Shown here in pieces: positions 7,599 to 64,000 of a stretch of DNA of 64,000 bases; position 1 is the first letter of the stretch; every line of letters begins with the position of its first letter. The notes under the pieces are model-generated. The model was not told the DNA's origin. It worked only from the letters and a program-made list of their open reading frames with translations, and did no database searches. The position numbers and the translations under genes were made by a program. The stretch is from positions 65,140 to 129,139 of the forward strand of contig CAZMIM010000001.1 in NCBI GenBank assembly GCA_964566505.1, given 5' to 3'. This DNA comes from an uncultured Candidatus Saccharibacteria bacterium. Lineage in GTDB: Bacteria; Patescibacteriota; Minisyncoccia; Phycocordibacterales; PCTT01.

Positions 7599-7817
7599 TC
7601 ATCGAAAGAGATCCAGCGGATAGCCTGGTAAAGACAGTATCTCAAGGGCTATGCCCAGCAAAGCAATCCAAACCCCTCTTCTTTGAAGTTTTTGTTCGCG
7701 CAACTTGCTGATATACAACTTTTTTCTTTTTACGTTAGCATAAACCAACAAAGATACTCCACTGAATAAAACTAAGACAGAAAATACTGGTATAACAAAG
7801 GGAAGAAGTGTCTGCAT
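7599..7817 (-). CDS. Small hypothetical membrane protein (73 aa)
   Basis: Start at ATG 7817 (MQTLLPFVIPVF...) with AGGAG RBS; the longer ORF upstream would run through the 7861-7887 terminator hairpin. Confidence 0.4.
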   Translation of the reverse strand: MQTLLPFVIPVFSVLVLFSGVSLLVYANVKRKKLYISKLREQKLQRRGVWIALLGIALEILSLPGYPLDLFR

Positions 7818-7860
7818 TTGTATCTCCTTTTTAGTGAACGTTTTATTTAATATAGCACAA

Positions 7861-7903: not shown

Positions 7904-8149
7904 TCAGAAGAAAATATATAGCGAGCAAAGCATTGCAAAGCCAGTAATGGTTGCCCGACGTGAGAAGCGCAAAACCCTTGTTTCTCTTTGAAGCTCAGAC
8001 CGCAGCCTTGCAGCCTGTGCTCCTCGTACTTCCAAACGAATCGCTCCCTCGAGCTCTTTGCAATTTCCTGACCACGCAATCCACATTACACCTCCTGCCA
8101 CAAGACCTATGGGGCCAAAAATAACAAACAAAGTGCTGAGAAGTTCCAT
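7904..8149 (-). CDS. Small hypothetical membrane protein (81 aa)
   Basis: AGAGGTG RBS before ATG 8149; one TM helix; followed by the strong hairpin at 7861-7887. Confidence 0.4.
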   Translation of the reverse strand: MELLSTLFVIFGPIGLVAGGVMWIAWSGNCKELEGAIRLEVRGAQAARLRSELQRETRVLRFSRRATITGFAMLCSLYIFF

Positions 8150-8250
8150 GATTCACCTCTTTTTGTATTTGTACAATCAAAAACATATTACCACACAAAA
8201 ACCACCTCGTAAATAAAGGTGGTTTTTGTTTAAGTTGTTTAAGGTTGTGC

Positions 8251-12613: not shown

Positions 12614-14779
12614 TTACTTCGCTACTTTCACCGCCTCATCAAACTCAATAGAAAGCAATCGTGAAATACCGTCATGTTGCATAGTCACTCCATATAGTAG
12701 GCCTGCTCGTGACATAGTCTCTCTGTTGTGAGTAATGAGAATAAGTTGTGAGTACTCTGAAAGAGAGTTGATCATATCTCCATATCTCTTTGAGTTTGCT
12801 TCATCAAGAGCTGCGTCTGTCTCATCTAGGATAATAAATGGAGGTGGATTGATTTGTGAAAGCGCAAATAGAAGTGCAATAGATGTAAGGGCCCGCTCAC
12901 CACCAGAAAGCATCTCTAGTGAGCGAATCTTTTTCTTTGGAAGATTTACATCTATCTCCACGCCCTCTACCACATCGTCCTCTTCATCTTCTGATGTCTG
13001 CTTTTTCTTCTCAAGGAAAAGGCTTGCATTACCTCCTCCGAACATCAATGAGAAAAATGAATCAAACTGTCCATTAATACGCTCAAGCCCTTCTTTGAAT
13101 CGGGTATCGAGTGTGTTGTCTATCTCTTTTATAAGCTCCTCCAGAGACTGCTTTGTACTCTTTAGGTCGGCAAGCTCTTTTGAAAGAAACTCGTCACGCT
13201 CCTCTACCTCTTTGTGCTCTGTGCGCACCTCGTTGAAAGAGCCAATACCAAAATCTTCAAGTTTTACCAAAAGTCTGTCTATCTCCTTTGAGCGTCTTTG
13301 CTGATCTCCCTCATCACCTGCCGGGTCTACATCTACATACATAGTAATCTCTCGCCCATACTTCATGCCTGCCTCCATAAGATCCTGCTCAAACTGTTTA
13401 CCGCGCTCGCGAAGAAGTGCCTTCTTTTGCTCCAAATCAGCAAGTGTCGCTCGCAATTCTTTTTCTCGAGACATTACCTTTACCAAATCACGCTCAGCTC
13501 GGTAAAACTCGCTTCGCTCTTCCTCTGCTTTGTGTGATATGTCTGATTGCTTTTTAAGAAGCTCTTCTTTTTCCATATCTAACGCCTCTATCTCTCGCTC
13601 TATCGCCTTTCGCTTTTCATCTAGAAGCGAAGTGTCTACTTCTTCGGCTGGTGCCTCTGTCTTTAGCTCCGTTTTTACATCTGCAAATTCCTCTTTTATA
13701 AATGAAAGAAGTGTTTTTACAGCGGTGGCATCAGAAAGTGTTGTGTTTTGGATTTTCTCTTCTATTTTTGTAATAAGCTTGAGAACCTTTTGTCCTGAGA
13801 TGGCTTTTCCTTGTGTGAGCTGTGTGTGCTTCATAAGTCGCTCCTGTGCCTCTATTTCTCCCTCTACACGCCCCAAATCACGCGTGAGTATGTTTCGCTT
13901 GTGTGAGATATCTTTTAGCTCTCGCCCAATACGGTTGAGCTCTTTGTGATGCTCTGACTCGTCCTGTGTATCATCGAGAATCTTTTGAAGTTCTTTTACT
14001 TCATTCTCAATATTTTTAAGCTCTCCACGCGGAACCGCAATTTTCCCATCAAGTCTTGCTTGCTCTGTCTCAAGATATTTCTCTTCGTATGAGAAATACT
14101 CTTTATAAAGTGTAATAAGCTCATCACGAAAAGCCTGAGCTTTCTCTCCCTTTTCTACCTGTTTTTTAAGAAATGTTAGGTGTGGCTTTATCTCTCTTCG
14201 GAGCGATTCTACTTCTTTGATGTTTTGCTCGGTGCGTGAGAGCTTTGAAATACTGTCTTTTCGTTTCAAATGATATACACGAAGCCCTAGTGCGTCCTCT
14301 ATCATTGAACGTCGCTCTTTTGGAGATACATTAAGTATTCTGTCTGCCTCTCCTTGAGAAATAATATGATGTCCAGTAGAGCCAATGTTTGCACGAGCCA
14401 GAAGCTCTGCAATATCTTTCCTGCGCACCTTTGAGTCGTTTATACGATACTCGTGTGTTCCGTCTCGGTGCACTACACGCTCTATCACTACATCGTCATA
14501 ATCAATATCAAAAAGTTTATTTCTGTTATCAAGCACCACTCTTACGCTTGCTCTATTTGAGCGCTGTCCTCCACCTGAACCATTGAAAATAAGATCCTCA
14601 CTTCGCTTTCCTCGAAGTGATTTCATAGACTGCTCACCAAGCGCAAATCGAAATGCCTCTGCTACATTTGATTTTCCTGAACCATTTGGTCCTACGATTG
14701 CAGAAATGGGAGTTTTAAAGTCGAGTTTTGATTTTTTACCGAATGATTTGAATCCGGCAATCTCGATAGATTTAAGCAT
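12614..14779 (-). CDS. smc: SMC-family ATPase, short (721 aa) and apparently hinge-less
   Basis: SMC_N head (FKSFGKK...IVGPNGSGKSNVAEAFRFALGE); C-terminal signature LSGGERALTSIALLFAL and Walker B ILDETDAALD; ~500 aa of coiled coil between them with no glycine-rich hinge motif. Confidence 0.75.
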   Translation of the reverse strand: MLKSIEIAGFKSFGKKSKLDFKTPISAIVGPNGSGKSNVAEAFRFALGEQSMKSLRGKRSEDLIFNGSGGGQRSNRASVRVVLDNRNKLFDIDYDDVVIERVVHRDGTHEYRINDSKVRRKDIAELLARANIGSTGHHIISQGEADRILNVSPKERRSMIEDALGLRVYHLKRKDSISKLSRTEQNIKEVESLRREIKPHLTFLKKQVEKGEKAQAFRDELITLYKEYFSYEEKYLETEQARLDGKIAVPRGELKNIENEVKELQKILDDTQDESEHHKELNRIGRELKDISHKRNILTRDLGRVEGEIEAQERLMKHTQLTQGKAISGQKVLKLITKIEEKIQNTTLSDATAVKTLLSFIKEEFADVKTELKTEAPAEEVDTSLLDEKRKAIEREIEALDMEKEELLKKQSDISHKAEEERSEFYRAERDLVKVMSREKELRATLADLEQKKALLRERGKQFEQDLMEAGMKYGREITMYVDVDPAGDEGDQQRRSKEIDRLLVKLEDFGIGSFNEVRTEHKEVEERDEFLSKELADLKSTKQSLEELIKEIDNTLDTRFKEGLERINGQFDSFFSLMFGGGNASLFLEKKKQTSEDEEDDVVEGVEIDVNLPKKKIRSLEMLSGGERALTSIALLFALSQINPPPFIILDETDAALDEANSKRYGDMINSLSEYSQLILITHNRETMSRAGLLYGVTMQHDGISRLLSIEFDEAVKVAK

Positions 14780-38800: not shown

Positions 38801-39136
38801 AATAAAAGTGTTTAATTTATAACTAATGTTATTGTACAACGCAAAAGCATATAAGCAAAAACCCTCTGGGGAAAAGAAAAAGACCGCCGAAGCGGTCCTT
38901 TTCAAGTGTACCTCTCAGATGTCCGGGGACATCAAGTTGTACAAGGGTTAGTATATAGATACTTAAAATAATGTCAAACCCTTATTTTCAAAAGACAACA
39001 TTCTTTATAAAAAGTCAAAATTTCTTCAGAAAATGAAAAACGCCACGAAAGTGACGTTTTTCAGTGTATTCCCCAGATGTCCGAAGACAACAAGGAATAC
39101 ACTGACAATTTATCAAAAGCCTATTCCCCTGTCAAG

Positions 39137-39449
39137 CAAAATATAAAAAACGCACCACGAGGACTTACAGGGCCCAAGTGGTGCGCGATTCCGTTACGCA
39201 CGTCGGCACCGGCTCGAAAGCCACTGCTGTCGTATGCGCCACGGGGTTTGCGCTCGGAGCTCCTTACGAAGCTGGCGCATATCCGTCGCACGCTGGTCAT
39301 GAAGAGTCTTCAAACGACTCGGCGTAGTTTGAAGAACTCCGGTTACTCCCTCAGCACCGTGACTAGAGCGAGACGGACGGTCGGTTTGGATTACGGCCTT
39401 CATTATCTTAGGTTTGTTACCTTAAAGAAAAACGAAGGCGATTTGTCCA
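39137..39449 (-). ncRNA. Candidate structured non-coding RNA (~310 nt) of unknown class
   Basis: Minus-strand consensus promoter TTGACA(39484..39479)-17-TATTAT(39461..39456); GC-rich (~52%) stem-rich body (UUCG tetraloop ggcTTTCGagcc, hairpin gaagaCtcttc); intrinsic terminator gcaccacN19gtggtgc plus T-run ending near 39137. The overlapping ORFs are low-complexity. Confidence 0.45.
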
Positions 39450-39455
39450 ATATTA

Positions 39456-39484
39456 ATAATATCATGTTTACTTGATTTTGTCAA
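39456..39484 (-). promoter_or_regulatory. Sigma70-like promoter for the candidate ncRNA
   Basis: TTGACA-17 nt-TATTAT on the minus strand. Confidence 0.45.
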
Positions 39485-39563: not shown

Positions 39564-40556
39564 TCAAAGACGTGGGAACAAATCGAACTCGATATAGTCC
39601 GCCATTTCTTTAAACTCTGGTGTAAGGTGCACATCAGGAACCCATGCAATCCCCTTGTCGATGAGGTTTATTTCCTCAACAACTCGAGCGCCGGGAATGA
39701 GTGATCCATCTTCTGAATCACGCTCATGCCCCATAATGAGCAGTATGTCACACAGCCTAAGCATTGGTGACACGTCATGAGATATAACGAATATCGTATT
39801 ATGTGTATCGAGATTCGAAACCTCCCTGATGATTTCTACAGCCTTCGTGCGCGACAATGGATCAAGGTTGGCAAATGGTTCATCCATCACCATTACAAGA
39901 TCTTCACCGTGCGCAAGAATTTGCTGAAGAATTGCGGCTCTCTGTCTCTGTCCACCTGACAATTCTGCAGGATACATCTGAGTTGTGGAGCCGATTCCAA
40001 ATCGATCCATATAACTCAAAGCATCATTTTTTACAGCTGCACGAGCTCTTTTGTTGAATGATGCACGCTTAAACGGATTATATAATCCGGATACACGACT
40101 TCTCATTCGTTTTGCTCTTTGCATACCTGCGACAACTAAGTTGTCCAGAACTGTTCTGTGGTCAAACATCGGATATTGCTGTAAAACGAAACCTACTCGG
40201 CCTCGCTTGAGTGGAACATGGTCTGGACCATACGTTATGGAGCCAGAGTCATACCCAGTCAGACCAGCAACACGACGCATCATTTGAGTCTTACCTACAC
40301 CCGAAGGAGCAAGTATTCCTACAATCTGACCCTCTATCCGATTGTGACGTTCGATGTTTCTCACTTGGAAACTAGCGTCTCGCAAAACACTCTCGCCTCT
40401 ATAGCTGACATTGAGCCCTTCTACAGTGATGACAGGTTCTGCAAAGCGATATTTCCTCCCCTCATTTCCAAGGGGATATTGATTGACGTTCATAGTCATT
40501 ACCCCTTGAGCTTGAGAGTTGACCATCTGAAGCCTTTGGTTCGAATCTTTCCCCAT
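39564..40556 (-). CDS. ABC transporter ATP-binding protein (NitT/TauT family-like)
   Basis: Walker A GILAPSGVGKT, signature LSGGQRQR, Walker B LVMVMDEPFANLD. Confidence 0.85.
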   Translation of the reverse strand: MGKDSNQRLQMVNSQAQGVMTMNVNQYPLGNEGRKYRFAEPVITVEGLNVSYRGESVLRDASFQVRNIERHNRIEGQIVGILAPSGVGKTQMMRRVAGLTGYDSGSITYGPDHVPLKRGRVGFVLQQYPMFDHRTVLDNLVVAGMQRAKRMRSRVSGLYNPFKRASFNKRARAAVKNDALSYMDRFGIGSTTQMYPAELSGGQRQRAAILQQILAHGEDLVMVMDEPFANLDPLSRTKAVEIIREVSNLDTHNTIFVISHDVSPMLRLCDILLIMGHERDSEDGSLIPGARVVEEINLIDKGIAWVPDVHLTPEFKEMADYIEFDLFPRL

Positions 40557-41395
40557 AGATAATCAAAAAGAAGTCCTGCAAACAAAAGCAAAAACATGAT
40601 GGCAAACAAATTTGAAAGCTTCATGAACTTGTCTTCGATTGAGACAAGAACCCCTACTCCACCGCCACTGAGAACCAGTTTTTCTACTGATGTGAGCATT
40701 GCCCAACCAAATCCAAATACGGCACCAAAATTGGTAAGCGCAAGAGGAAATGTACCCAGAATAACGACTTCATAGAGAACTCTCCATTCACTCATTCCTA
40801 GAGTGTATGCGTGTTCATACAAATACTGAAACTGCTCGTCCACAACTCCATTCATTCCGTGTATGAAAAATACACTCAAAATGAAAGTCATGATAGAGAT
40901 TTTCAGTGACTCACTCCCCCCAAATTCAGTCATGAATATGAGGAGAAGAATTGCTATTGGTATGAAACGAAGAAGTGCGACAATCCTGCTTATAGGCCTG
41001 AATGCCGCAAGTCCTCTCAAGTACACAATGGAGAGCGAAAGGATGAAAGATATCACTGAAGATATGAACATGAGCTTGAAACTTTTTAAAAGATCCCATG
41101 CGAGACCTTTTTGAGTCCACAACTCAATTAGTCCATACCAAACGTCCAAAGGACGTGGGATTATTTGTGCCGCACCAAATACCCACCACAAACCAATCGC
41201 AAGAGCATACGAGAATGTAATACTCCATTCAACAGGTTTGGGTAAATCTTGGTTTGGAACAAACAACATCTTCAGAAGAGATATCACCCGATCAACAATC
41301 ACGGTTTTTTGCGGTTTTTTCATAACCACTCTCTCCTTTGAATAAGGGCCCGACTCGACTAATGTCTGAGTCGGGCCCTTGGTTAAAAAGAACAA
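40499..41395 (-). CDS. ABC transporter permease (BPD_transp_1; NitT/TauT-type)
   Basis: Six TM helices and an EAA-like loop; overlaps the ATPase gene start. Confidence 0.8.
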   Translation of the reverse strand: MFFLTKGPTQTLVESGPYSKERVVMKKPQKTVIVDRVISLLKMLFVPNQDLPKPVEWSITFSYALAIGLWWVFGAAQIIPRPLDVWYGLIELWTQKGLAWDLLKSFKLMFISSVISFILSLSIVYLRGLAAFRPISRIVALLRFIPIAILLLIFMTEFGGSESLKISIMTFILSVFFIHGMNGVVDEQFQYLYEHAYTLGMSEWRVLYEVVILGTFPLALTNFGAVFGFGWAMLTSVEKLVLSGGGVGVLVSIEDKFMKLSNLFAIMFLLLFAGLLFDYLWGKIRTKGFRWSTLKLKG

Positions 41396-41407
41396 ACGAC
41401 AGACAGG

Positions 41408-43345
41408 CTAGTTACCAATCCTGATTTCCACCCGACGATTCTTCGCCCGATTTTCAGCAGTGTTGTTATTGGCATTCGGATCAACCGGTTGCCTTTGGCC
41501 CATACCCGCAACACGAGTACGAGTAGTGTTGAAGTTCACTGGATCCTTGGTGTAGAACCACGCTTGGATAGTCTGCGCACGGCGCAGTGCCAAGCCGTCG
41601 TTAAATGCGGGATCACCAGTGTTGTCGGTATGTCCGACAAACTCAATCAAGTAACTCTGGTTCAAGCTCGTGAGCTGCTGATACAACCCATCGAGAACCG
41701 GAATCGATTCGGGCGCGAGCTCAGCGCTCCCAGACCGAAATTTGATTGAATCAAAATCACCACTCGCGCGAACGTTGGTAATGGCGGCATTCGGGTCATA
41801 ACTGCGCGACAACTTGACCGCAAGGTCAGGTCGTCGGTTTGCTACAGCTTCCAAATATCGTGTATTAACAGCTTCACTGTAAGGCACGTATTCTCCGTAT
41901 TCATTCGGATAGTTAAGTGCCAACACGTCACCATAACGTTCGTATGTGTTTTTATACAAACTCACGTTGTATCCAACACCAAAGAGCTCAAGCGTATGTG
42001 CAAGCGAGTGAACCTGTGATCCACCAACCGACACATTTTGACTCAATCGAGAATCAAAGATTTCTGTGCCTGTGTGCATTTCTGCCCAATAAGCACCGTC
42101 CTTCTGCTTGAGAACTTTTGCAGTAACTTCACTTGCCTCGAGCAAAGCTTCGCTGTTTGTTAGAACCTGATCGTTTGCTTCCGAAGAAGCTTCAATAATA
42201 GCTTCAATAACACCTGGGTTATCTCTCGCCCATCCACGATGCACAAGCAAAATGCTCGGCATCTGACCAGGATTGTCTCTTGTAGACCACATAGTCACCA
42301 CACCTCCACGCTGTTCAACAACGTTACGGTCTTCCGGTGTCCATACGGATACAGAGTCAACACAAACAGTCCGACGTTCTCCCGTCAACTCTGCTTCACC
42401 GGCAGAATTAACAGTTACAATCGGGCGCTCTTCGCAACGCTCCGAGACATAAGCCTTCGTAGCGTCAGAGTTTGAAGTTGTGGCATAGAAGTTGATACAA
42501 TCCGGATTGTATGTTTCAGGATCCGGGTTGATACAAACCCCATTGAGACTTGCCCAATCTACAACAATATTCTGATCATCGTCCATGATCACAGTTGCGG
42601 TGAGGAGGCCTCGCGCATTCCGTGAATCACGTAATACTTCAGGAGGAGCCATGAACTGATCTTCGCCATAGCTCCGTCCAAAAGAATGGACAATATCAAA
42701 ATTGTTTTCTTCAGGAAGTCTCTCAACTCCACCTGCGATTGCGGTTGTGTAGAAGGTTCCTCCTCCACCCATCACAACAATCGCAGCCGCTCCTTCGGTT
42801 GGATACATATCACCTTCGGCATAACGCTGAGCAAACAATACTGCGTTCTTGATCATCTGCGGTACATCATCAAGTACCTTGACTTCAAGACGAATATTGT
42901 CAGCACGGTTACGGCGAAGTGCCTGCTCCATCAAACTTCCACGAGCGGTAATAGCACCGCCATCACGTGATTCCTGGGCAGCACCATTGGCTGCAAAGAA
43001 GCCCTTCTGAGCCCCCCACGGAATCACCTCGATAGGCATTGTGTAATCTGCGCTCATGGGAGTAGTGCCTGTCCACAAAGAACGAGGTTCTACGGTATAA
43101 GGCACCGTGCTCACATCCTGGTTAATAACCTGGACTTCTTCATGAACACGGGAAGCCGCACGATTCTTCTCAGGCAACATCGACTTGGCAAAGCCAAGAA
43201 TGCTGTCACCAAAGAAAAAAGTGACGGCGACCAAAACCAGCAGTCCAAGGACTACTTTGGTTTTGGTAGGAATATCAACAGTGGTAGACATGTGAGTGTC
43301 CTCTTGTTTCGTGTGTGTTTCGTGTGTGCGACGTATATCAGTCAA
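41408..43345 (-). CDS. Membrane-anchored putative substrate-binding protein (~450 aa) fused to a C-terminal OmpA/MotB-like peptidoglycan-binding domain
   Basis: N-terminal TM segment; C-terminal ~110 aa FRSGSAELAPESIPVLDGL...IEFVGHTDNTGDPAFNDGLALRRAQTIQAWF...RRVEIRI is a canonical OmpA_C domain; sits directly upstream of the permease/ATPase. Confidence 0.55.
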   Translation of the reverse strand: MTDIRRTHETHTKQEDTHMSTTVDIPTKTKVVLGLLVLVAVTFFFGDSILGFAKSMLPEKNRAASRVHEEVQVINQDVSTVPYTVEPRSLWTGTTPMSADYTMPIEVIPWGAQKGFFAANGAAQESRDGGAITARGSLMEQALRRNRADNIRLEVKVLDDVPQMIKNAVLFAQRYAEGDMYPTEGAAAIVVMGGGGTFYTTAIAGGVERLPEENNFDIVHSFGRSYGEDQFMAPPEVLRDSRNARGLLTATVIMDDDQNIVVDWASLNGVCINPDPETYNPDCINFYATTSNSDATKAYVSERCEERPIVTVNSAGEAELTGERRTVCVDSVSVWTPEDRNVVEQRGGVVTMWSTRDNPGQMPSILLVHRGWARDNPGVIEAIIEASSEANDQVLTNSEALLEASEVTAKVLKQKDGAYWAEMHTGTEIFDSRLSQNVSVGGSQVHSLAHTLELFGVGYNVSLYKNTYERYGDVLALNYPNEYGEYVPYSEAVNTRYLEAVANRRPDLAVKLSRSYDPNAAITNVRASGDFDSIKFRSGSAELAPESIPVLDGLYQQLTSLNQSYLIEFVGHTDNTGDPAFNDGLALRRAQTIQAWFYTKDPVNFNTTRTRVAGMGQRQPVDPNANNNTAENRAKNRRVEIRIGN

Positions 43346-44432
43346 GGTGCTTTAGGTATTTACTACCCCCTTGACGATTACGCCCCTTGTTTTGGGTTTT
43401 CTGTTCATCAACATCATCAGGAAGAGGGATTTCAATCACTCCTCTAGAGGATTTGTCGATGGATATTGCTTTTTTCCCTTCTCCTCTTGCGATATCTGGA
43501 ATTTCCAGACCTGAATCCATCAGCATAGCAATCAAGGACGGGTCATCGTATGACATTGGGTTTTCAGCATTACCGAACCCTACGATAACCTTTTCTTGAA
43601 TACCAATGAGAGCTTCGATTTTTGCCGCATCAGCTTTAAATTGCTGAAACGCCATGTCCTCGGTAGCCATCAAAGACTGATTTTCACCCAGAGTATCAAG
43701 ATCGGGGTCTAATGATAATTCCCCAACGATGTCTTGAATTACGTCTTGTACCTCACCAGTGGTTTTTAAGCCACTAGCAGTTACCTTAAGTCCTTCAAGA
43801 GATACTTCTGTGTGAGTTTCGAGATGCTTGAGAAGGAGAAGCATATTTTCAATCTCCTCTTTTTTCTCCTCAAACCCACGAATAGATTCAACACGCGGCT
43901 GAAGTCGCCTTTTCAGGCTTTTGAGAACACTAGGATTAGCTTTTTCTTGCTTCTCCATTTCAGTCTTCAGTTCAAGGTATACCTCGTCCCGAACACTAAT
44001 GTCCTCCTTCAGCCTTGTGTTTACTTTTGTGAGAGCAACCTCCTCCAAACGACGAATACCTGAAGTGATTTTACGAAGTCGCTTTTCGTGCGCCTCAATA
44101 ATTTCATCAGGTGTTCTATTTGGTGTTGGTTTTTCTACAACTTCTTCCTCAGTAAGACCAGCGATTTTGCGAACAAACTGTAGATACAGCATCGCAAAAT
44201 GAGTCAGTGCATCTTGTGCACTGCCATGTTGTTCGCTTGTTCTCTGAAAGAAGTAGGTTGCAAGTGCAACAAGTAGGGTCAAAACTCCAGCGATCTGAAA
44301 CCCGGAAAGGCTCGCAACAAGAACCCAGAGTATCTGGATCATTACGAGCGGGAAAAGAATAGCAACACTGATCCCAACGTTTCGCTCCCGCTTATCACGA
44401 AAGACCCGCCGACGATCTTTTTTGCTACTCAT
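43338..44432 (-). CDS. Hypothetical membrane protein: basic N-terminus, two TM helices, long cytoplasmic coiled-coil domain
   Basis: ATG 44432 with GGAGG RBS, 1 nt after the stop of the upstream gene (translational coupling). Confidence 0.5.
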   Translation of the reverse strand: MSSKKDRRRVFRDKRERNVGISVAILFPLVMIQILWVLVASLSGFQIAGVLTLLVALATYFFQRTSEQHGSAQDALTHFAMLYLQFVRKIAGLTEEEVVEKPTPNRTPDEIIEAHEKRLRKITSGIRRLEEVALTKVNTRLKEDISVRDEVYLELKTEMEKQEKANPSVLKSLKRRLQPRVESIRGFEEKKEEIENMLLLLKHLETHTEVSLEGLKVTASGLKTTGEVQDVIQDIVGELSLDPDLDTLGENQSLMATEDMAFQQFKADAAKIEALIGIQEKVIVGFGNAENPMSYDDPSLIAMLMDSGLEIPDIARGEGKKAISIDKSSRGVIEIPLPDDVDEQKTQNKGRNRQGGSKYLKHLD

Positions 44433-44433
44433 A

Positions 44434-45270
44434 TTATTCCTCCGAATTTCCGAGGTTGAAGTCCGACTCAATCTCGTTTATACGAGCAGCCATGAGCTTT
44501 GCAGCTGCTTGGAATTGCATGCTCGTATTTACGGTATCAGCCTGGCGTAAAGAAAGTTCATCTTCGAGCTCAGGTAGCCCAGCGTCAATTTGTGACGCTT
44601 CAGCAACCAACTTTTCGGATGTTTTTTTCGCCTCATCAATCAAGCGCTTGGCTTCAGCTTCTGCCTCTGCCACAACCTCTTGCGCCCTGAGGCGCTTCGA
44701 TGACGCGTCTTCCTTTGCTCTTGCAATAGCTCGTTCCGCTTCTGCTTCACGTTTTGCAAGCGCTTTCAGTGCCTCATCACCAAAAAGAGACTTTTCTTGA
44801 TCCAAGCGCGCACGATGTGCGCCAAGATCTTCTGCAAGCTCCTTTTTGCCAATGTTTCGTTTTGCAAGCATCTTCATTACCAAGGCAACGAGTGCTTCTG
44901 GTCCAGCAGCAAGCTCTGCGAACTCCTTTTGCACATCAAGCAGTTGCTCGACAGGCGTTGGTGGAGTAGCGGGGTCAGATTCAAAAACAGTCTCCGCCAG
45001 ACTAACCAGCAAAGGATTGTTTTCGAGAACATTCCCCGCACCTTCAGCAAGCTCTGCATGTGTCTGTGTCAAAACTTCATCAGAAGAAGACGAGTCCACA
45101 CTCGGTGCTTTGTGCTGAAGATCTCGCAGTATCTGCTCAACCTCATCAGCTGCCGAAGAGGACTCTCCTCCAGCGGCATCTGGCTCCAGATTAGAACTTT
45201 CGTTCTCTCTGATAATAGTCGGTCCCCATCCTTCAGTGAGGAAAGAGACAAACTTGCTTTTTGGTGCCAT
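44434..45270 (-). CDS. Hypothetical acidic coiled-coil protein (278 aa) with EA-repeat region
   Basis: AEAERAIARAKEDA ... VVAEAEAEAKRLIDEAKK coiled-coil/EA repeats; GC about 55-60%. Confidence 0.5.
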   Translation of the reverse strand: MAPKSKFVSFLTEGWGPTIIRENESSNLEPDAAGGESSSAADEVEQILRDLQHKAPSVDSSSSDEVLTQTHAELAEGAGNVLENNPLLVSLAETVFESDPATPPTPVEQLLDVQKEFAELAAGPEALVALVMKMLAKRNIGKKELAEDLGAHRARLDQEKSLFGDEALKALAKREAEAERAIARAKEDASSKRLRAQEVVAEAEAEAKRLIDEAKKTSEKLVAEASQIDAGLPELEDELSLRQADTVNTSMQFQAAAKLMAARINEIESDFNLGNSEE

Positions 45271-45364: not shown

Positions 45365-45682
45365 CTAATCTTCATCAAATCTGAGATTTCTAGCACGATG
45401 TGCAGTCCAACCCTCCTTTCTTCTTTCAAATTGGGAGAGTACAACGAAACTTTTCTTTTCAGGCAACGGGGTTTTTTCATCATCAGGAAACCATTCCGAC
45501 GAAAGAAACGTGAGAGAACCGAGATGATTTAGGCTTGAATCTTCAGGCCAACAAACAAATCGTTTCTGTTCACCATCTTTTCCGTGAGGAAAAATATCTC
45601 CAATAACTGCTATTACCTCGTTACACGGAATTTCGTTGCTCTGCACATCATTAGCAGTACTTCTGCTAGCTTTATGCATCAC
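45365..45682 (-). CDS. Hypothetical protein (105 aa)
   Basis: ORF only; no domain recognised. Confidence 0.3.
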   Translation of the reverse strand: MMHKASRSTANDVQSNEIPCNEVIAVIGDIFPHGKDGEQKRFVCWPEDSSLNHLGSLTFLSSEWFPDDEKTPLPEKKSFVVLSQFERRKEGWTAHRARNLRFDED

Positions 45683-45852
45683 ATTAGTCCGTGGATTTTA
45701 GTGAAAAGTTTTGTGAAAGATTTTTTTAGGTTCAATATCCTCCTTTTTGTCAATAAACAAAAAACTAGTTATGTGATTGTCAATGAGCATCTTGATTTCT
45801 GAGTTTACAAGAACACAGAAAAAGATATTCGCGACAGTCTAACATAATAAAG

Positions 45853-45881
45853 TTGATATGTCAATATATGTGTGCTATAAT
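45853..45881 (+). promoter_or_regulatory. Near-consensus sigma70 promoter TTGATA-17-TATAAT
   Basis: TTGATA (45853-45858), 17-nt spacer, TATAAT (45876-45881), ~20 nt upstream of the ORF at 45902. Three TGTCAAT motifs lie between 45746 and 45865. Confidence 0.5.
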
Positions 45882-61223: not shown

Positions 61224-62265
61224 AGAAATTGCTGATTGAGTATAGATCCTCTTCCCCGCTCTCTTCCTCTTTTTGCTCTTCTTTGGCTGGCAAATCACCG
61301 AGCGCATCAGATGCAGAGAGAACTGTTTTTTGCTCTGACACATAGTAGAGCTTTGGCTCATACATTCCTACTTTATCTGGTGTAGTGCCAGACTCTTCTA
61401 TAAATCTATCCATCATTGCTGATGTAGATTTTTTCTCGTCAGTACTTTTTACCAAATCCAAAATACTCTCAAGGTCTTGTGGTGAGAAGAAGTCGATAAC
61501 AATACGCCCACCAATATCTTTTTGTTCAATCTGTACTCGAGTACCAAGAGACTCTGCGAGCTTCTCCTCCATCTTTATTATAGTTGGATCAACTGTTCGC
61601 TCTTTCTTTCGCACCTTGTCATAGGCAATACGGCGCGCAATAGACTCTGCCTGGCGAACTGTTAGCTTTTTGTATACAAGCTCTTTAAAGAGTGTTTTTT
61701 GCTGTTCTGGACGGTCATCAAGCATGAGTAGTGGTCGTGCATGACCTTCTTTTATGCGTCCTTGGATAATGGCATCCAAAACATCTTCAGGCAAAATAAG
61801 AAGCCTGATAGAGTTTGAAACATACTCTCGTGAACGACCCACCTTTTCTCCGATTTGTGCATGTGTGAAGTTAAACTCTTCTGCAAGTTGTTTGAATGCT
61901 CGGGCGCGGTCTATTGGGTTTAGGTCTTCTCGTTGGAGGTTCTCGATAATAGCAAGCTCGAGCTTTTCACGAGCGCTTTGTTGTCCGCTTCTGATGATTA
62001 CCGGCACTTGAGAAAGGCCTGCGATTTGTGATGCTCGGTGTCGTCTCTCTCCTGCAATAAGCTCATATTCAACACTAATACCACCGTCTTCATTTACGAT
62101 TTCATTTCGTGTTACCACAAGAGGTTGAAGCACTCCATACTGACGAATGGAATCTGCCAAATCATTGAGTCGCGCCTCGTCAAACTCTTTTCGTGGCTGA
62201 TATGGGTTGGGAACTATCTTTGTTACTTCCACCCAAAAAATTGCATTTTCGTGAAAATTTGCCAT
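61216..62265 (-). CDS. parB: ParB/Spo0J-family partition protein (no adjacent parA)
   Basis: ParB box GERRHRAS and an HTH; 3' end overlaps rel by 8 nt. Confidence 0.85.
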   Translation of the reverse strand: MANFHENAIFWVEVTKIVPNPYQPRKEFDEARLNDLADSIRQYGVLQPLVVTRNEIVNEDGGISVEYELIAGERRHRASQIAGLSQVPVIIRSGQQSAREKLELAIIENLQREDLNPIDRARAFKQLAEEFNFTHAQIGEKVGRSREYVSNSIRLLILPEDVLDAIIQGRIKEGHARPLLMLDDRPEQQKTLFKELVYKKLTVRQAESIARRIAYDKVRKKERTVDPTIIKMEEKLAESLGTRVQIEQKDIGGRIVIDFFSPQDLESILDLVKSTDEKKSTSAMMDRFIEESGTTPDKVGMYEPKLYYVSEQKTVLSASDALGDLPAKEEQKEEESGEEDLYSISNFSI

Positions 62266-64000
62266 ATACACCTATACTTATAGTGATATTGTAGCACAGA
62301 TGAAAATTGGGAGTGTATGTGCATATTGCACAAAAGTGCGAGTTGCAGTACGCTTCTTGTATGTGCATGCCGCGGTGGCGGAATTGGTAGACGCGCACGA
62401 CTCAAAATCGTGTTCCTTACGGAGTGAGAGTTCGATTCTCTCCCGCGGCACAAGGAAGGAATGATTAGAGCAAAATCAGTGTTCTGTATCGAGCAGTCCT
62501 CAACATCCTGAGGTTCGACCCTGGAGTTTTTCTTTCGGGCTCTGGCCAGCATCTCAGTGAATGCCTGGATGGGTTTCGTGTTGTAAACACGAAGTGATTG
62601 GCCATCCAGAACCAGGTTCGACCCCCAAGCGGTCAACGATCCCCGCTTATCGCGAGGCGTCCCCTTAGCGATCACCTTGGATAGGTCGTGGGCCAGGTTT
62701 GCTAATTCTGCAGCTTTGTCGTACCACACCCCTTTCTTTTGATTTGAGCGTAGCGAGCGCTCCCGTTGGTCTAGCTCGGCTGTCATTTCGTTGAACTCAG
62801 TGTCATCAATCATCGCTTTTGAACGCATGATGACGACCTCCTTGCGCTGGCTTTTTAGATCAGCGATGGCATTAAGACGACAGTTGTCAACAGATCGGCT
62901 AGCCTCGATTTCTTCATCTCGTAGGTGAGTAAGATGCTTGAGGATCCAGTCTCTTAGGGCGGTAGAAATCGCCAGGTTCTGCCTGATATAGTCCAAGAGG
63001 AATGCCTCGACCTTTCTTTCCTCTATTGCAGGCGCCCTCACCCCAATCATCTTCCTTGCTCGGCTGCTACGATAGTACACGTAGTGCCTGAATGTTGGGC
63101 TCTTCATGTGACTTATCGCCAGGCTACACTTAGGACAGTGCTCTCTAGTAGCGTATGAAAACTTGTGCCTGCAGCCCGAACACACAACGTGGTCTTTGAA
63201 GTCGGCTACCACCCCGCAATCATATTGAGCGCAGCGAATAAACCCTGTGTATACGGCTCTGGGCCTTGCGTTGTGTCTCCTTCGACCGAGTCTACCCAGC
63301 ATCTTCTGAATGCGCCAGTATTCATCCTCAGAGATCGCTCGTGGAAGTGCTTGATCCATTTCATATCTCTTTCCCTCATAAAAGAAGAAGCCTGCGTAGT
63401 ACGTGTTGGCAAGAAGCTTGTAGAAGTTGGTCAGCGTGACTGGTTTGCCTCCAGATCTTTTTCTTATCGGCGTCCTTAGACCCAGCTCATTGCATGCATG
63501 CTCCCACACCTCTCGAACCGAAAACCTTCCACAAAGAATCCGACGAAACACCTCCTCGATGATGGGGAATCGCTCTTCGTCGACTTGCCACCTTTTTGCT
63601 CCTTTTTCCCCGGATTTGTCATTCTTATAGCCAATAGGCGCTAGTCCGTGTGGGATGCCAAGTGACGCTTTTCGCCGTTGTCCCCGCCTTACGTTCGAGG
63701 AAAGGTCGCGAATAAATTGGTTGGCCATCCCAAATTCAACAGCAAGAACGATGACGTTGGTCTCTGGGGTATAGCGAGATGTTGGCGTTCTGATTTCCTG
63801 GAGTACTCCTCGTTGAAGAAGGTCCATTATCCGACCGCCATCAATTGGGTTTCTGGCAAGCCGGTCTAGCTTCCAGCATATAATGGCGTTTGCATCCCCT
63901 CGTTCGACTCGTTCGAGCATTGCATTGAATGCCGGACGACCAACAGCTTTCGCAGATCGCTCCTCAGTGAATGGGGCGCCTGCGACAAAGAGTCCCCGCG
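62223..64000 (-). CDS. Large serine recombinase (integrase), partial: the N-terminal catalytic region runs past the window end. The C-terminal ~80 codons read through antisense tRNA-Leu and into parB, so the true stop is uncertain.
   Basis: The frame stays open to 64000 (…LFVAGAPFTEERSAKAVGRPAFNAMLERVERGDANAIICWKLDRLARN is a resolvase-domain motif); zinc ribbon CSGCRHKFSYATREHCPKCS and a coiled coil follow; GC ~55%. Confidence 0.75.
   Translation of the reverse strand, partial: RGLFVAGAPFTEERSAKAVGRPAFNAMLERVERGDANAIICWKLDRLARNPIDGGRIMDLLQRGVLQEIRTPTSRYTPETNVIVLAVEFGMANQFIRDLSSNVRRGQRRKASLGIPHGLAPIGYKNDKSGEKGAKRWQVDEERFPIIEEVFRRILCGRFSVREVWEHACNELGLRTPIRKRSGGKPVTLTNFYKLLANTYYAGFFFYEGKRYEMDQALPRAISEDEYWRIQKMLGRLGRRRHNARPRAVYTGFIRCAQYDCGVVADFKDHVVCSGCRHKFSYATREHCPKCSLAISHMKSPTFRHYVYYRSSRARKMIGVRAPAIEERKVEAFLLDYIRQNLAISTALRDWILKHLTHLRDEEIEASRSVDNCRLNAIADLKSQRKEVVIMRSKAMIDDTEFNEMTAELDQRERSLRSNQKKGVWYDKAAELANLAHDLSKVIAKGTPRDKRGSLTAWGSNLVLDGQSLRVYNTKPIQAFTEMLARARKKNSRVEPQDVEDCSIQNTDFALIIPSLCRGRESNSHSVRNTILSRARLPIPPPRHAHTRSVLQLALLCNMHIHSQFSSVLQYHYKYRCIWQIFTKMQFFGWK
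62370..62451 (+). tRNA. tRNA-Leu (anticodon CAA), type II with long variable arm
   Basis: Acceptor GCCGCGG/CCGCGGC, anticodon loop CUCAAAA, 13-nt variable arm, T-loop TTCGATT. Confidence 0.88.
62452..64000. mobile_element. Edge of an integrated element (prophage/ICE/genomic island) inserted at the 3' end of tRNA-Leu(CAA)
   Basis: Abrupt GC rise to ~55% exactly after the tRNA 3' end; serine integrase gene oriented with its 3' end toward the tRNA. Confidence 0.6.

Follow-up and report, generated by a model that had tools for sequence, protein, structure and literature searches.

The five genes at positions 39564-45270 of the window (the whole 64,000-nucleotide stretch of DNA analysed here) form a trimmed member of the known 'PspA-associated PBP+OmpA ABC transporter' operon class, present as a horizontally inserted module in a Parcubacteria (Patescibacteria) chromosome. 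On balance we favour a reading in which the cassette joins a cell-wall-pinned ABC importer to a PspA/ESCRT-III-like membrane-maintenance protein in one envelope-maintenance module. PspA and Vipp1 are now recognised as bacterial ESCRT-III. A cassette in which a PspA-like protein goes together with an ATP-driven transporter anchored to peptidoglycan bears on their recruitment and regulation in settings other than the classical Psp and Lia systems. The module is compact, with five genes, and very widespread: dozens of huge phages have it, as do 561 or more bacterial species.

The wall-anchored transporter

The ORF list confirmed an earlier sequence-only reading in that five ORFs run in one direction on the minus strand, in the order A-B-S-P-N. 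Of their products, S faces the wall and P lies in the membrane, while N, B and A are placed on the cytoplasmic side. Gene S (41408-43294, minus strand) encodes a 627-aa membrane-anchored solute-binding/OmpA fusion when started at the NCBI position 43294; the ORF itself extends to 43345 and 645 aa. Its N-terminal transmembrane anchor, VVLGLLVLVAVTFFFGDSILGF (43181-43249, minus strand), was read from the sequence, and the AF2 model has a helix at residues 9-38 of P0001. At the other end of the protein, the predicted canonical OmpA_C domain (41453-41740, minus strand) was recovered by PF00691 at residues 536-631 of the 645-aa ORF (E 1.9e-12, 47.8 bits against a cut-off of 27.2), with PA0833, TagL, YiaD and OmpA as sequence matches in the PDB. 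The GHTD...N..L..RA residues of this domain are invariant across the family, and D556 and R571 (P0001 numbering) do not vary among 26 sequences. In OmpA and Pal the conserved Asp and Arg are the diaminopimelate ligands. S is held by its N-terminal helix in the cytoplasmic membrane and pinned by its C-terminal OmpA-like domain to peptidoglycan.

Between these anchors lies a TauA/SsuA/NrtA-like solute-binding domain (NMT1-superfamily, type II; 41792-43045, minus strand). The domain had been proposed to resemble a substrate-binding protein (SBP), and it indeed has the NMT1/TauA/NrtA fold, TauA and SsuA being the closest folds. No match to NMT1, TauA or NrtA was seen at the sequence level, and a profile of the domain found nothing among PDB sequences. 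S-type proteins already carry the NCBI label 'substrate-binding/OmpA family protein'; where the label reads 'phosphate ABC transporter substrate-binding/OmpA family protein', the substrate class it gives is probably wrong. MotB/PomB, TagL/TssL and Pal likewise combine an N-terminal membrane or lipid anchor with a C-terminal OmpA_C domain that has the conserved peptidoglycan-binding residues, but what lies between the anchors in S is a solute-binding protein, and S is partnered with an ABC importer instead of a stator, T6SS or Tol.

The assignment of the last two genes to a TauC/SsuC-like permease and its ATPase also held. Gene P (40499-41395, minus strand), which adjoins S in 69 loci, matched PF00528 (BPD_transp_1; 41.1 bits against a cut-off of 26.4) and, weakly, the NCBIfam models SaoP and TauC; its true start is probably an internal Met at ORF residue 25. 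Gene N (39564-40556, minus strand) matched PF00005, with NCBIfam matches of the CysA, PhnT, TauB and SsuB types below cut-off, and likely starts at 40496 as judged from homologues beginning '..YSYG..'. With Walker A (GVGKT), Q-loop, LSGGQ, Walker B (DEP) and H-loop (SHD) all intact in its translation, N is predicted to be a catalytically intact ABC ATPase. No equivalog-level match to a characterised importer was obtained, all NCBIfam scores lying 3- to 10-fold under their cut-offs, and we infer the import direction of S-P-N from family membership only. The cassette thus resembles TauABC, SsuABC and NrtABCD-CmpABCD (NitT/TauT, TC 3.A.1.16-17) in its BPD_transp_1 permease with weak TauC/SaoP matches and in a nucleotide-binding domain nearest the CysA, PhnT, TauB and SsuB types. 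It differs from them in the transmembrane anchor and OmpA_C domain of S, and in its linkage to PspA-like genes.

On another reading the complex is no importer. It would instead be a wall-sensing or force-transmitting device, in which the SBP-OmpA protein signals the state of the peptidoglycan or envelope, or binds a ligand from the wall, and P2N2 hydrolyses ATP to drive or gate the assembly of a PspA-like polymer, by analogy with FtsEX-type mechanotransmission. Fixation at both ends is odd for a shuttle protein, and the conserved residues of the SBP domain, which may line the pocket, include many Trp, Tyr, Asp and Glu where an oxyanion site would typically have Arg, Lys and His. The obligate link with ESCRT-III-like proteins, joined in the long forms of the operon by an AAA+ ATPase, points the same way. 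However, P has the classical BPD_transp_1 domain of type-I importers and is not of the FtsX/MacB type, and membrane-anchored SBPs are normal in bacteria that lack an outer membrane. We consider such a device unlikely.

Coiled-coil genes and the published operon class

Gene A (44434-45270, minus strand) encodes a 278-aa acidic soluble coiled-coil protein and gene B (43338-44432, minus strand) a protein of 364 aa. As had been reported, a single nucleotide separates the A stop from the B ATG, with GGAGG 7 nt before the ATG; the ORF of B reaches 44471, and the start at 44432 agrees with that of the NCBI protein P0027. The same reading had found neither gene assignable to a family. This stands for the window copies, which matched no Pfam or NCBIfam family above threshold, but not for their relatives, where the two positions can be assigned to PspA/IM30 and to its partner family.

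For gene A, Pfam and the PDB returned only generic coiled-coil matches. A profile built from the positional equivalents in other loci nevertheless found it at E 5.7e-19, and BLASTP related it to its equivalent in locus L156 (E 4e-4). The A family in turn aligned with the gene 5' of acidobacterial PspA (hhalign 96.4%, E 1.3e-9). By these sequence comparisons gene A belongs to a conserved PspA-partner family, 'X', that has no Pfam model.

Sequence comparison likewise identifies the proteins at the B position in relatives as PspA/IM30 (ESCRT-III superfamily). The acidobacterial gene there is a bona fide PF04012 member (57 bits), to which the phage-type B family aligned at 96.6% (hhalign). PspA_IM30 is the top Pfam family among B-family members, and against the PDB Vipp1/PspA ranked first (E 4.9e-5), in register from the DP motif.

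The window copy of B is far more divergent. It has a basic N-terminus, two transmembrane helices and a long cytoplasmic helical hairpin, and among 1.84 billion representatives searched its sole relative was P0061 (E 2.3e-4), which is encoded at the B position of the L156 copy of the cassette. A two-sequence profile of B and P0061 gave a weak match to the B family (hhalign 81%, E 1.2e-5, 137 columns in register), whereas B as a single sequence was not significant against the PspA/B family (1.3%) and had no match to PF04012 at E ≤ 0.1. The AF2 model was poor (pLDDT 47), with helices at 108-160 and 167-220 (pLDDT 70-85) followed by 225-238 and 256-285; a Foldseek search with it returned nothing significant (best E 0.07), and Vipp1, PspA and CHMP structures were frequent among the top matches. 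Its position, its one distant relative and the 81% profile match link gene B to the PspA-type family: it is the positional equivalent of the TM-anchored PspA/IM30-like protein and probably a homologue that has diverged far from it. The B family shares with PspA and Vipp1 (IM30) the alignment from the DP motif through helices alpha-1 to alpha-4 and a predicted site on the cytoplasmic face of the membrane. In contrast to these proteins, gene B is anchored by a transmembrane hairpin, its basic N-terminus and two hydrophobic segments standing in place of the N-terminal amphipathic helix alpha-0; the cassette lacks PspB, PspC, PspF and LiaI partners; and the window copy is not detectably PspA from its sequence alone.

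The arrangement is one already described by comparative genomics, as a PspA/Snf7-associated ABC operon with a PBPB+OmpA protein (Ravi et al. 2024, PMC11237479); in the literature the operon type has been described this once, with no experimental study. The window reproduces the published order of X-like partner, PspA-position gene, PBP+OmpA fusion, permease and ABC ATPase, and two acidobacterial loci (L090 and L097) match the published layout and are tied to the window families by profiles. The window differs in lacking the downstream TM-anchored divergent Snf7 and the double AAA+ ATPase, and in a PspA-position protein that has two transmembrane helices instead of alpha-0 and has lost direct PspA similarity. 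Downstream (3') of gene N a non-coding stretch leads directly to FKBP, with no TM-Snf7 or AAA+ gene; both are missing from the phage-type five-gene form as well. The fusion had been called unusual, which does not hold given its occurrence in at least 561 GTDB species, its existing NCBI name and the published operon type.

In the module that we favour, S would capture a small solute at the wall/membrane interface and hand it to P2N2 for ATP-driven import, while A and B would form a membrane-bound PspA-like scaffold beside the transporter that preserves or remodels the bilayer during envelope stress. With the scaffold adjoining the transporter, we propose that solute uptake and membrane maintenance would become one unit.

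Distribution in bacteria and huge phages

The S-type fusion was found in at least 561 GTDB species and on 69 IMG/VR contigs. Synteny of all five genes, which had been put forward as a check on the cassette, was found in several bacterial genomes and in about 60 of 70 viral-collection loci, where the A-B-S-P-N order is kept over a GC range of 27% to 67% and no further neighbour is conserved. The flanks of the viral loci carry T4-type portal, clamp loader, NAMPT, RNA and DNA ligase and RNR genes, so these are real large phages; the curated 462-kb phage LR756500.1 has the complete cassette. This strong presence in huge phages was not reported by Ravi et al. (2024, PMC11237479). Cassettes in phages of 150-580 kb suggest that giant phages manage host membrane integrity via a borrowed ESCRT-III system, presumably keeping the host membrane energised and intact through long infections.

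Among bacteria the gene order is X-PspA-S-P-N-TMSnf7-AAA in Acidobacteria and S-P-N-TMSnf7-X-PspA-AAA in Armatimonadota, so the association of A/PspA with the transporter survives rearrangement. S-P-N stands alone in 13 of 35 well-flanked bacterial loci, mostly Bacteroidota, which implies that the transporter can work without an adjacent PspA. Both states occur in cultured Bacteroidota, Parachryseolinea silvisoli having the full cassette and Fibrella aquatilis the transporter only, so that a natural with/without comparison is available for experiments.

These solitary transporters bear on a rival account, namely an ordinary NitT/TauT-family nutrient importer (for sulfonate, nitrate, a pyrimidine-like or another small solute) whose wall anchoring is incidental and whose A and B are passengers or structural accessories with no part in membrane repair. 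S-P-N alone in ordinary chromosomal settings, in Fibrella and many other Bacteroidota, would fit it, as would the closeness of the S fold to TauA and SsuA and the absence of a direct PspA signal in the window copy of B. It sits poorly with the constancy of A and B/PspA beside S-P-N across phyla, phages and rearrangements while all other neighbours vary, and with the single nucleotide between A and B in the window. We regard this account, too, as improbable.

Insertion site, composition and flanking elements

The proposal that the cassette was acquired as a unit is borne out by the locus in close relatives. Between TonB_C and FKBP, where the window carries the cassette, relative L158 has nothing, the two genes adjoining directly, and the Parcubacteria relative L157 has YqiJ_N and Band_7. 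Since this slot is empty or otherwise filled in close relatives, the cassette was inserted as a unit, horizontally. The YqiJ/NfeD-like and Band-7/flotillin module uses the same slot and has likewise been discussed as a PSP-associated membrane-organisation system, but its proteins are unrelated and it lacks a transporter. The three slot states present a clean case of modular exchange of envelope-maintenance functions in Parcubacteria.

A variable slot and an abundance of copies in huge phages could also indicate a moron of phage origin, with a role in conflict between phage and host (superinfection exclusion, defence or anti-defence), now lodged in a variable island of the Parcubacteria host, the more so as phage copies sit among NAD-salvage and RNA-repair genes, which are often counter-defence. 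Several observations speak against this, and we think it very improbable: PADLOC-DB 2.0 gave generic MotB-like, ABC and AAA domain matches only, the core trio has been found in 561 bacterial species or more, a cultured Bacteroidota chromosome has all five genes set between trpBA/aroG/pepN and TPR genes, and no integrase or phage structural gene adjoins the window cassette. A bolder extension of the envelope-maintenance module, which we rate as rather doubtful, would make it a self-contained, mobile membrane-integrity machine. Here the complex of wall-pinned SBP and ABC transporter would import or detect a ligand derived from the wall or from stress, and would spend ATP on controlling a TM-anchored, PspA-like ESCRT-III polymer assembled with A. 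Huge phages would have acquired the machine on repeated occasions so as to keep the host membrane together, or to remodel it, during lengthy replication. In Parcubacteria it would belong to a set of several exchangeable membrane-maintenance modules using one slot, with YqiJ/flotillin as the alternative.

No other part of the window of this length (5.7 kb) is as rich in GC as the cassette, which falls in the top 0.2% of sliding windows; this too speaks for insertion as a unit. The elevation is real but smaller than the roughly 50-60% first estimated: GC is 0.462 (46.2%) against 0.408 (40.8%) for the remaining window, and 300-nt windows within the genes reach 0.527 at most. GC3 is 0.38-0.445 in the cassette genes and 0.29-0.37 in housekeeping genes.

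Directly 5' of the cassette lies a 105-aa ORF (45365-45682, minus strand; ORF list) of uncertain status and cassette membership, which had no Pfam family and did not convincingly resemble the small ORFs that relatives have there. Upstream of both, a consensus scan gave a sigma-70-like site, TTGACA-17-TAGACT with TG (45836-45864, minus strand), which stays a candidate promoter because matches in the region were no more numerous than in shuffles. On the 3' side, the non-coding stretch at 39136-39456 (minus strand) is GC-rich (0.55) and structured (z = -7.1), with a separate promoter-like site at 39484-39456. Neither L157 nor L158 has this stretch, which is specific to the window's genome; it arrived with the inserted DNA and is a candidate ncRNA.

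The five-gene cassette and its fusion protein

The five co-directional minus-strand ORFs proposed from the sequence alone were present exactly at 39564-45270. Pfam identified BPD_transp_1 in the 298-aa permease ORF (P), ABC_tran in the 330-aa ATPase ORF (N) and, in the 645-aa ORF of the solute-binding/OmpA fusion (S), the OmpA_C domain (PF00691, residues 536-631, E 1.9e-12), all as first assigned, with zero matches for the 278-aa (A) and 377-aa (B) coiled-coil ORFs. NCBIfam matches of N to CysA, PhnT, TauB and SsuB-type ATPases, and of P to SaoP/TauC, were all sub-threshold. The ATPase motifs of N are intact. The NCBI gene model starts B at Met14 of its ORF, giving a protein of 364 aa (P0027), and S at Met18, giving 627 aa (P0001). 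With the Met14 start, the single nucleotide claimed between the A stop and the B start was confirmed, as was the GGAGG ribosome-binding site, which lies 7 nt upstream. A 105-aa ORF upstream of the cassette was considered as a sixth conserved gene and dropped, since it displayed no convincing homology to the ORFs found in the same place in relatives.

The binding domain of S matched no Pfam family, and its profile (40 sequences) retrieved nothing significant from the PDB sequences (THI13 at E 1.8). A confident AlphaFold2 model of S based on 26 homologues (pLDDT 84.5, pTM 0.78) begins with a helix that contains the hydrophobic anchor, continues as an alpha/beta domain of two lobes and ends in an OmpA-like domain. 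Foldseek placed TauA, NrtA, CmpA and SsuA at the top of the PDB matches (E 6e-10 to 1e-7, target TM-score 0.6-0.72); OmpA_C, TagL and Pal domains came next. On the modelled fold and these matches, the N-terminal domain is SBP-like, as had been supposed. In the OmpA domain the GHTD…N..L..RA residues are invariant across the family. In NCBI the family goes under the name 'phosphate ABC transporter substrate-binding/OmpA family protein' (Fibrella aquatilis WP_207335400.1; locus L075, 7749-9533). The 'phosphate' label is probably unfounded, since in the fold comparison TauA, SsuA, NrtA and ThiY rank well above PstS-like proteins.

Relation of the coiled-coil genes to PspA

The two coiled-coil genes had been described as lacking an assignable family. 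This holds for Pfam and the window proteins themselves, but relatives show that both genes make up the PspA part of an operon type already described, a connection that the sequence-only reading missed. For gene A, a family profile found the window protein at E 5.7e-19, and the A family aligned with the gene upstream of an acidobacterial PspA (hhalign 96.4%). Beyond generic coiled-coil matches, gene A returned nothing from Pfam or the PDB. Neither A nor B nor the SBP domain has a family in PHROGs, and pairwise BLASTP of window A and B against their equivalents at the huge-phage locus L001 was not significant.

Members of the B family carry a 'DPIGIL' motif resembling the PspA N-terminus. The first matches of the B-family profile were Vipp1/PspA structures (8qhv, E 4.9e-5), in register from DPIGIL, and no Pfam family ranked above PspA_IM30 when the 57 members were searched (5 matched it, best E 1.8e-6). 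At the B position Acidobacteria have a genuine PspA_IM30 protein (57.4 bits, cut-off 33.9), which hhalign matched to the B family at 96.6% (E 5.8e-10, 203 columns). Window B itself gave no direct match to the B-family or acidobacterial PspA profiles, no hhalign signal with the TM-Snf7 family and, in a single-sequence word-indexed search, only itself. An exhaustive search of 1.84 billion representatives yielded one relative, P0061 (E 2.3e-4), which occupies the B position of an identical five-gene cassette in another bacterium (L156); the fusion protein of that cassette has weak Pfam matches to NMT1, NMT1_2 and Phosphonate-bd. When window B and P0061 were combined into a profile, it aligned in register with the B family (hhalign 81%, E 1.2e-5, 137 columns). 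The AlphaFold2 model of window B is poor (pLDDT 47) and contains a hairpin of two ~53-residue helices (pLDDT 70-85) with shorter helices after it; Foldseek returned nothing significant, with Vipp1, PspA and CHMP structures numerous among the matches. We treat window B as the positional equivalent of a TM-anchored PspA-like protein, of which it is probably an extreme divergent.

In Candidatus Handelsmanbacteria the operon reported by Ravi et al. 2024 (PMC11237479) reads X → PspA → PBPB+OmpA → permease → ABC-ATPase → TM+Snf7 → AAA+AAA, and these authors proposed a tie between membrane remodelling and solute transport. In contrast to that operon, the window cassette lacks both TM-Snf7 and AAA+, and its PspA-position protein bears TM helices; it is therefore a trimmed version of a known, experimentally uncharacterised operon type. 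Our literature search found no experimental work on this operon type and no mention of the cassette in phages; a pspA-like gene beside terD has been reported in Jug phages. The cassette is nothing categorically new: it is a compact, widespread ESCRT-III/ABC module common to bacteria and giant phages, which is experimentally untouched and has cultured carriers.

Conserved linkage and mobility in bacteria and huge phages

The fusion had been called unusual, which its distribution contradicts. A word-indexed search for S found 26 relatives and pattern scans many more, with 69 loci in IMG/VR, many of them on contigs of 150-580 kb, and at least 561 among GTDB species representatives using a pattern built from 6 sequences. 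GTDB carriers among the matches listed include Cytophagales, Saprospiraceae, Chitinophagales, Acidobacteriota, Armatimonadota, Myxococcota and Patescibacteria. The flanks of the viral-collection loci are of genuine large-phage type, with genes for a T4-type portal, clamp loader, NAMPT, NAD synthase, RNA and DNA ligases, RNR and PARP, and the whole cassette is present in the curated 462-kb phage LR756500.1. These observations led us to reject mis-called CPR genomes as the source of most IMG/VR contigs; one, L005, is bacterial. In the reading that we favour, phages would use the cassette to maintain a working host membrane. The cassette could instead be a moron serving phage conflict, which we consider very improbable; PADLOC gave no defence-system match for the cassette.

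Several huge-phage loci carry the cassette beside NAD-salvage genes (NUDIX/NMNAT-like, NAMPT) and near RNA ligase and Tpt1 (for example L001, 11480-13829). Extra genes often interrupt phage copies: gaps of 0.7-1.7 kb occur inside the cassette in L006, L013, L029, L035, L044 and others, and in L003 P and N are separated by a gene with Endonuclease_7 and HTH domains (12629-13348) that resembles a homing-endonuclease insertion. Four MAG contigs labelled Candidatus Saccharibacteria (L078, L092, L093 and L096) have a phage-type A-B-S-P-N arrangement and may derive from phages whose contigs ended up in CPR bins, not from Saccharibacteria.

Using profiles built from cassette loci, we recovered the order A-B-S-P-N in ~60 of 70 viral-collection loci, bearing out the expected synteny. 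In these loci A measures ~220 aa, B is ~340 aa long with two TM helices and a coiled coil, GC varies between 27% and 67%, and none of the genes surrounding the cassette is conserved. Bacterial chromosomes have it as well: that of Parachryseolinea silvisoli contains all five genes, flanked by trpB, trpA, aroG and pepN at one end and by TPR genes at the other, and Fibrella has S-P-N only, amid ordinary genes. Among 35 adequately flanked bacterial loci with S-P-N, a PspA-like gene was adjacent in 12 and a gene of the A/X family, the coiled-coil partner accompanying PspA, in 16; a TM-anchored Snf7-like gene stood beside the trio in 17 and a ~575-aa AAA+ ATPase in 8. The order is X-PspA-S-P-N-TMSnf7-AAA in Acidobacteria and S-P-N-TMSnf7-X-(PspA)-(AAA) in Armatimonadota. 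The cassette is mobile, and its linkage to PspA-family proteins is conserved. Because this linkage persists through rearranged gene orders, it is good evidence that S-P-N and the PspA side are functionally coupled. In 13 of the 35 loci, mostly Bacteroidota, the trio occurred alone; the transporter can therefore stand alone. This would also suit a plain importer with A and B as passenger genes, a reading that we find improbable next to the persistent linkage.

In the predicted topology A, the coiled coil of B and N are cytoplasmic, and the binding and OmpA domains of S lie outside. Patescibacteria have no outer membrane, and therefore S would link the cytoplasmic membrane to the wall, much like MotB. 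Such a link could belong to a wall-sensing or mechanotransmitting ABC device that controls PspA assembly, which strikes us as unlikely. In the import reading that we favour, S would bind a small solute and hand it to P2N2 for import, and A and B would build a PspA-like scaffold on the inner side of the membrane, which it would protect or remodel together with the transporter.

Host, insertion slot and neighbouring elements

The bacterial-chromosome genes of the window (DnaE, ThrRS, SerRS, UvrA, UvrB, UvrC, SMC, RNase R and TopA), together with a UvrB that shares 71-77% identity with proteins labelled Paceibacterota, Parcubacteria or Patescibacteria, rule out that the window is itself a phage. 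Two relatives, L157 and L158, share the backbone TonB_C … FKBP–TGT–UvrB–UvrA–UvrC–Ddl. TonB_C adjoins FKBP in L158, leaving the slot empty, and in L157 (5106-7853) the slot is filled by YqiJ_N (235 aa) and a Band_7/flotillin-like protein (666 aa). The slot thus seems to collect alternative membrane-organisation modules. GC in the cassette is 46.2% against 40.8% in the rest of the window, and no 300-nt segment within the genes is above 52.7%, so that the ~50-60% first estimated is too high; the cassette is nonetheless richer in GC than any other segment of its length (5.7 kb) in the window (top 0.2%), and its GC3 is 0.38-0.445 against 0.29-0.37 for housekeeping genes. Since slot content varies in relatives and GC shifts at the cassette, the proposed acquisition as a unit is supported.

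Between the ATPase stop and FKBP lies a non-coding minus-strand stretch (39136-39456, ~320-400 nt) with a GC of 0.55 against a background of 0.41. It has a strong sigma-70-like promoter candidate (TTGACA-17-TATTAT with TG, 39484-39456), no plausible ORF and a predicted RNA fold much more stable than shuffles (z = -7.1). Nothing was found for it in Rfam, and it is absent from L157, L158 and all fetched loci, making it a candidate novel structured RNA or decayed gene remnant that came with the cassette. Directly upstream of FKBP, a minus-strand element of ~100-120 nt (~39034-39135) is conserved in three Parcubacteria genomes (L157, ~8090-8200; L158, ~7700-7830). With its GCTTGACA promoter box, short transcript and strong hairpin terminator (GGAAGACGTCACTCTCGGGTGGCGTTTTCC), it is likely a small RNA or leader.

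A minus-strand serine-recombinase ORF (62223-63920; Resolvase and Recombinase domains) overlaps or abuts a plus-strand tRNA-Leu (62369-62451), and GC climbs to 0.48-0.51 at 62-64 kb, the window end. This region may mark where an integrated element ends. A low-GC stretch (0.32-0.38) holds a minus-strand gene (47509-50220) for a secreted-looking 903-aa protein with an LCAT/DUF676 alpha/beta-hydrolase (lipase/acyltransferase) and a C-terminal lamin-tail domain.
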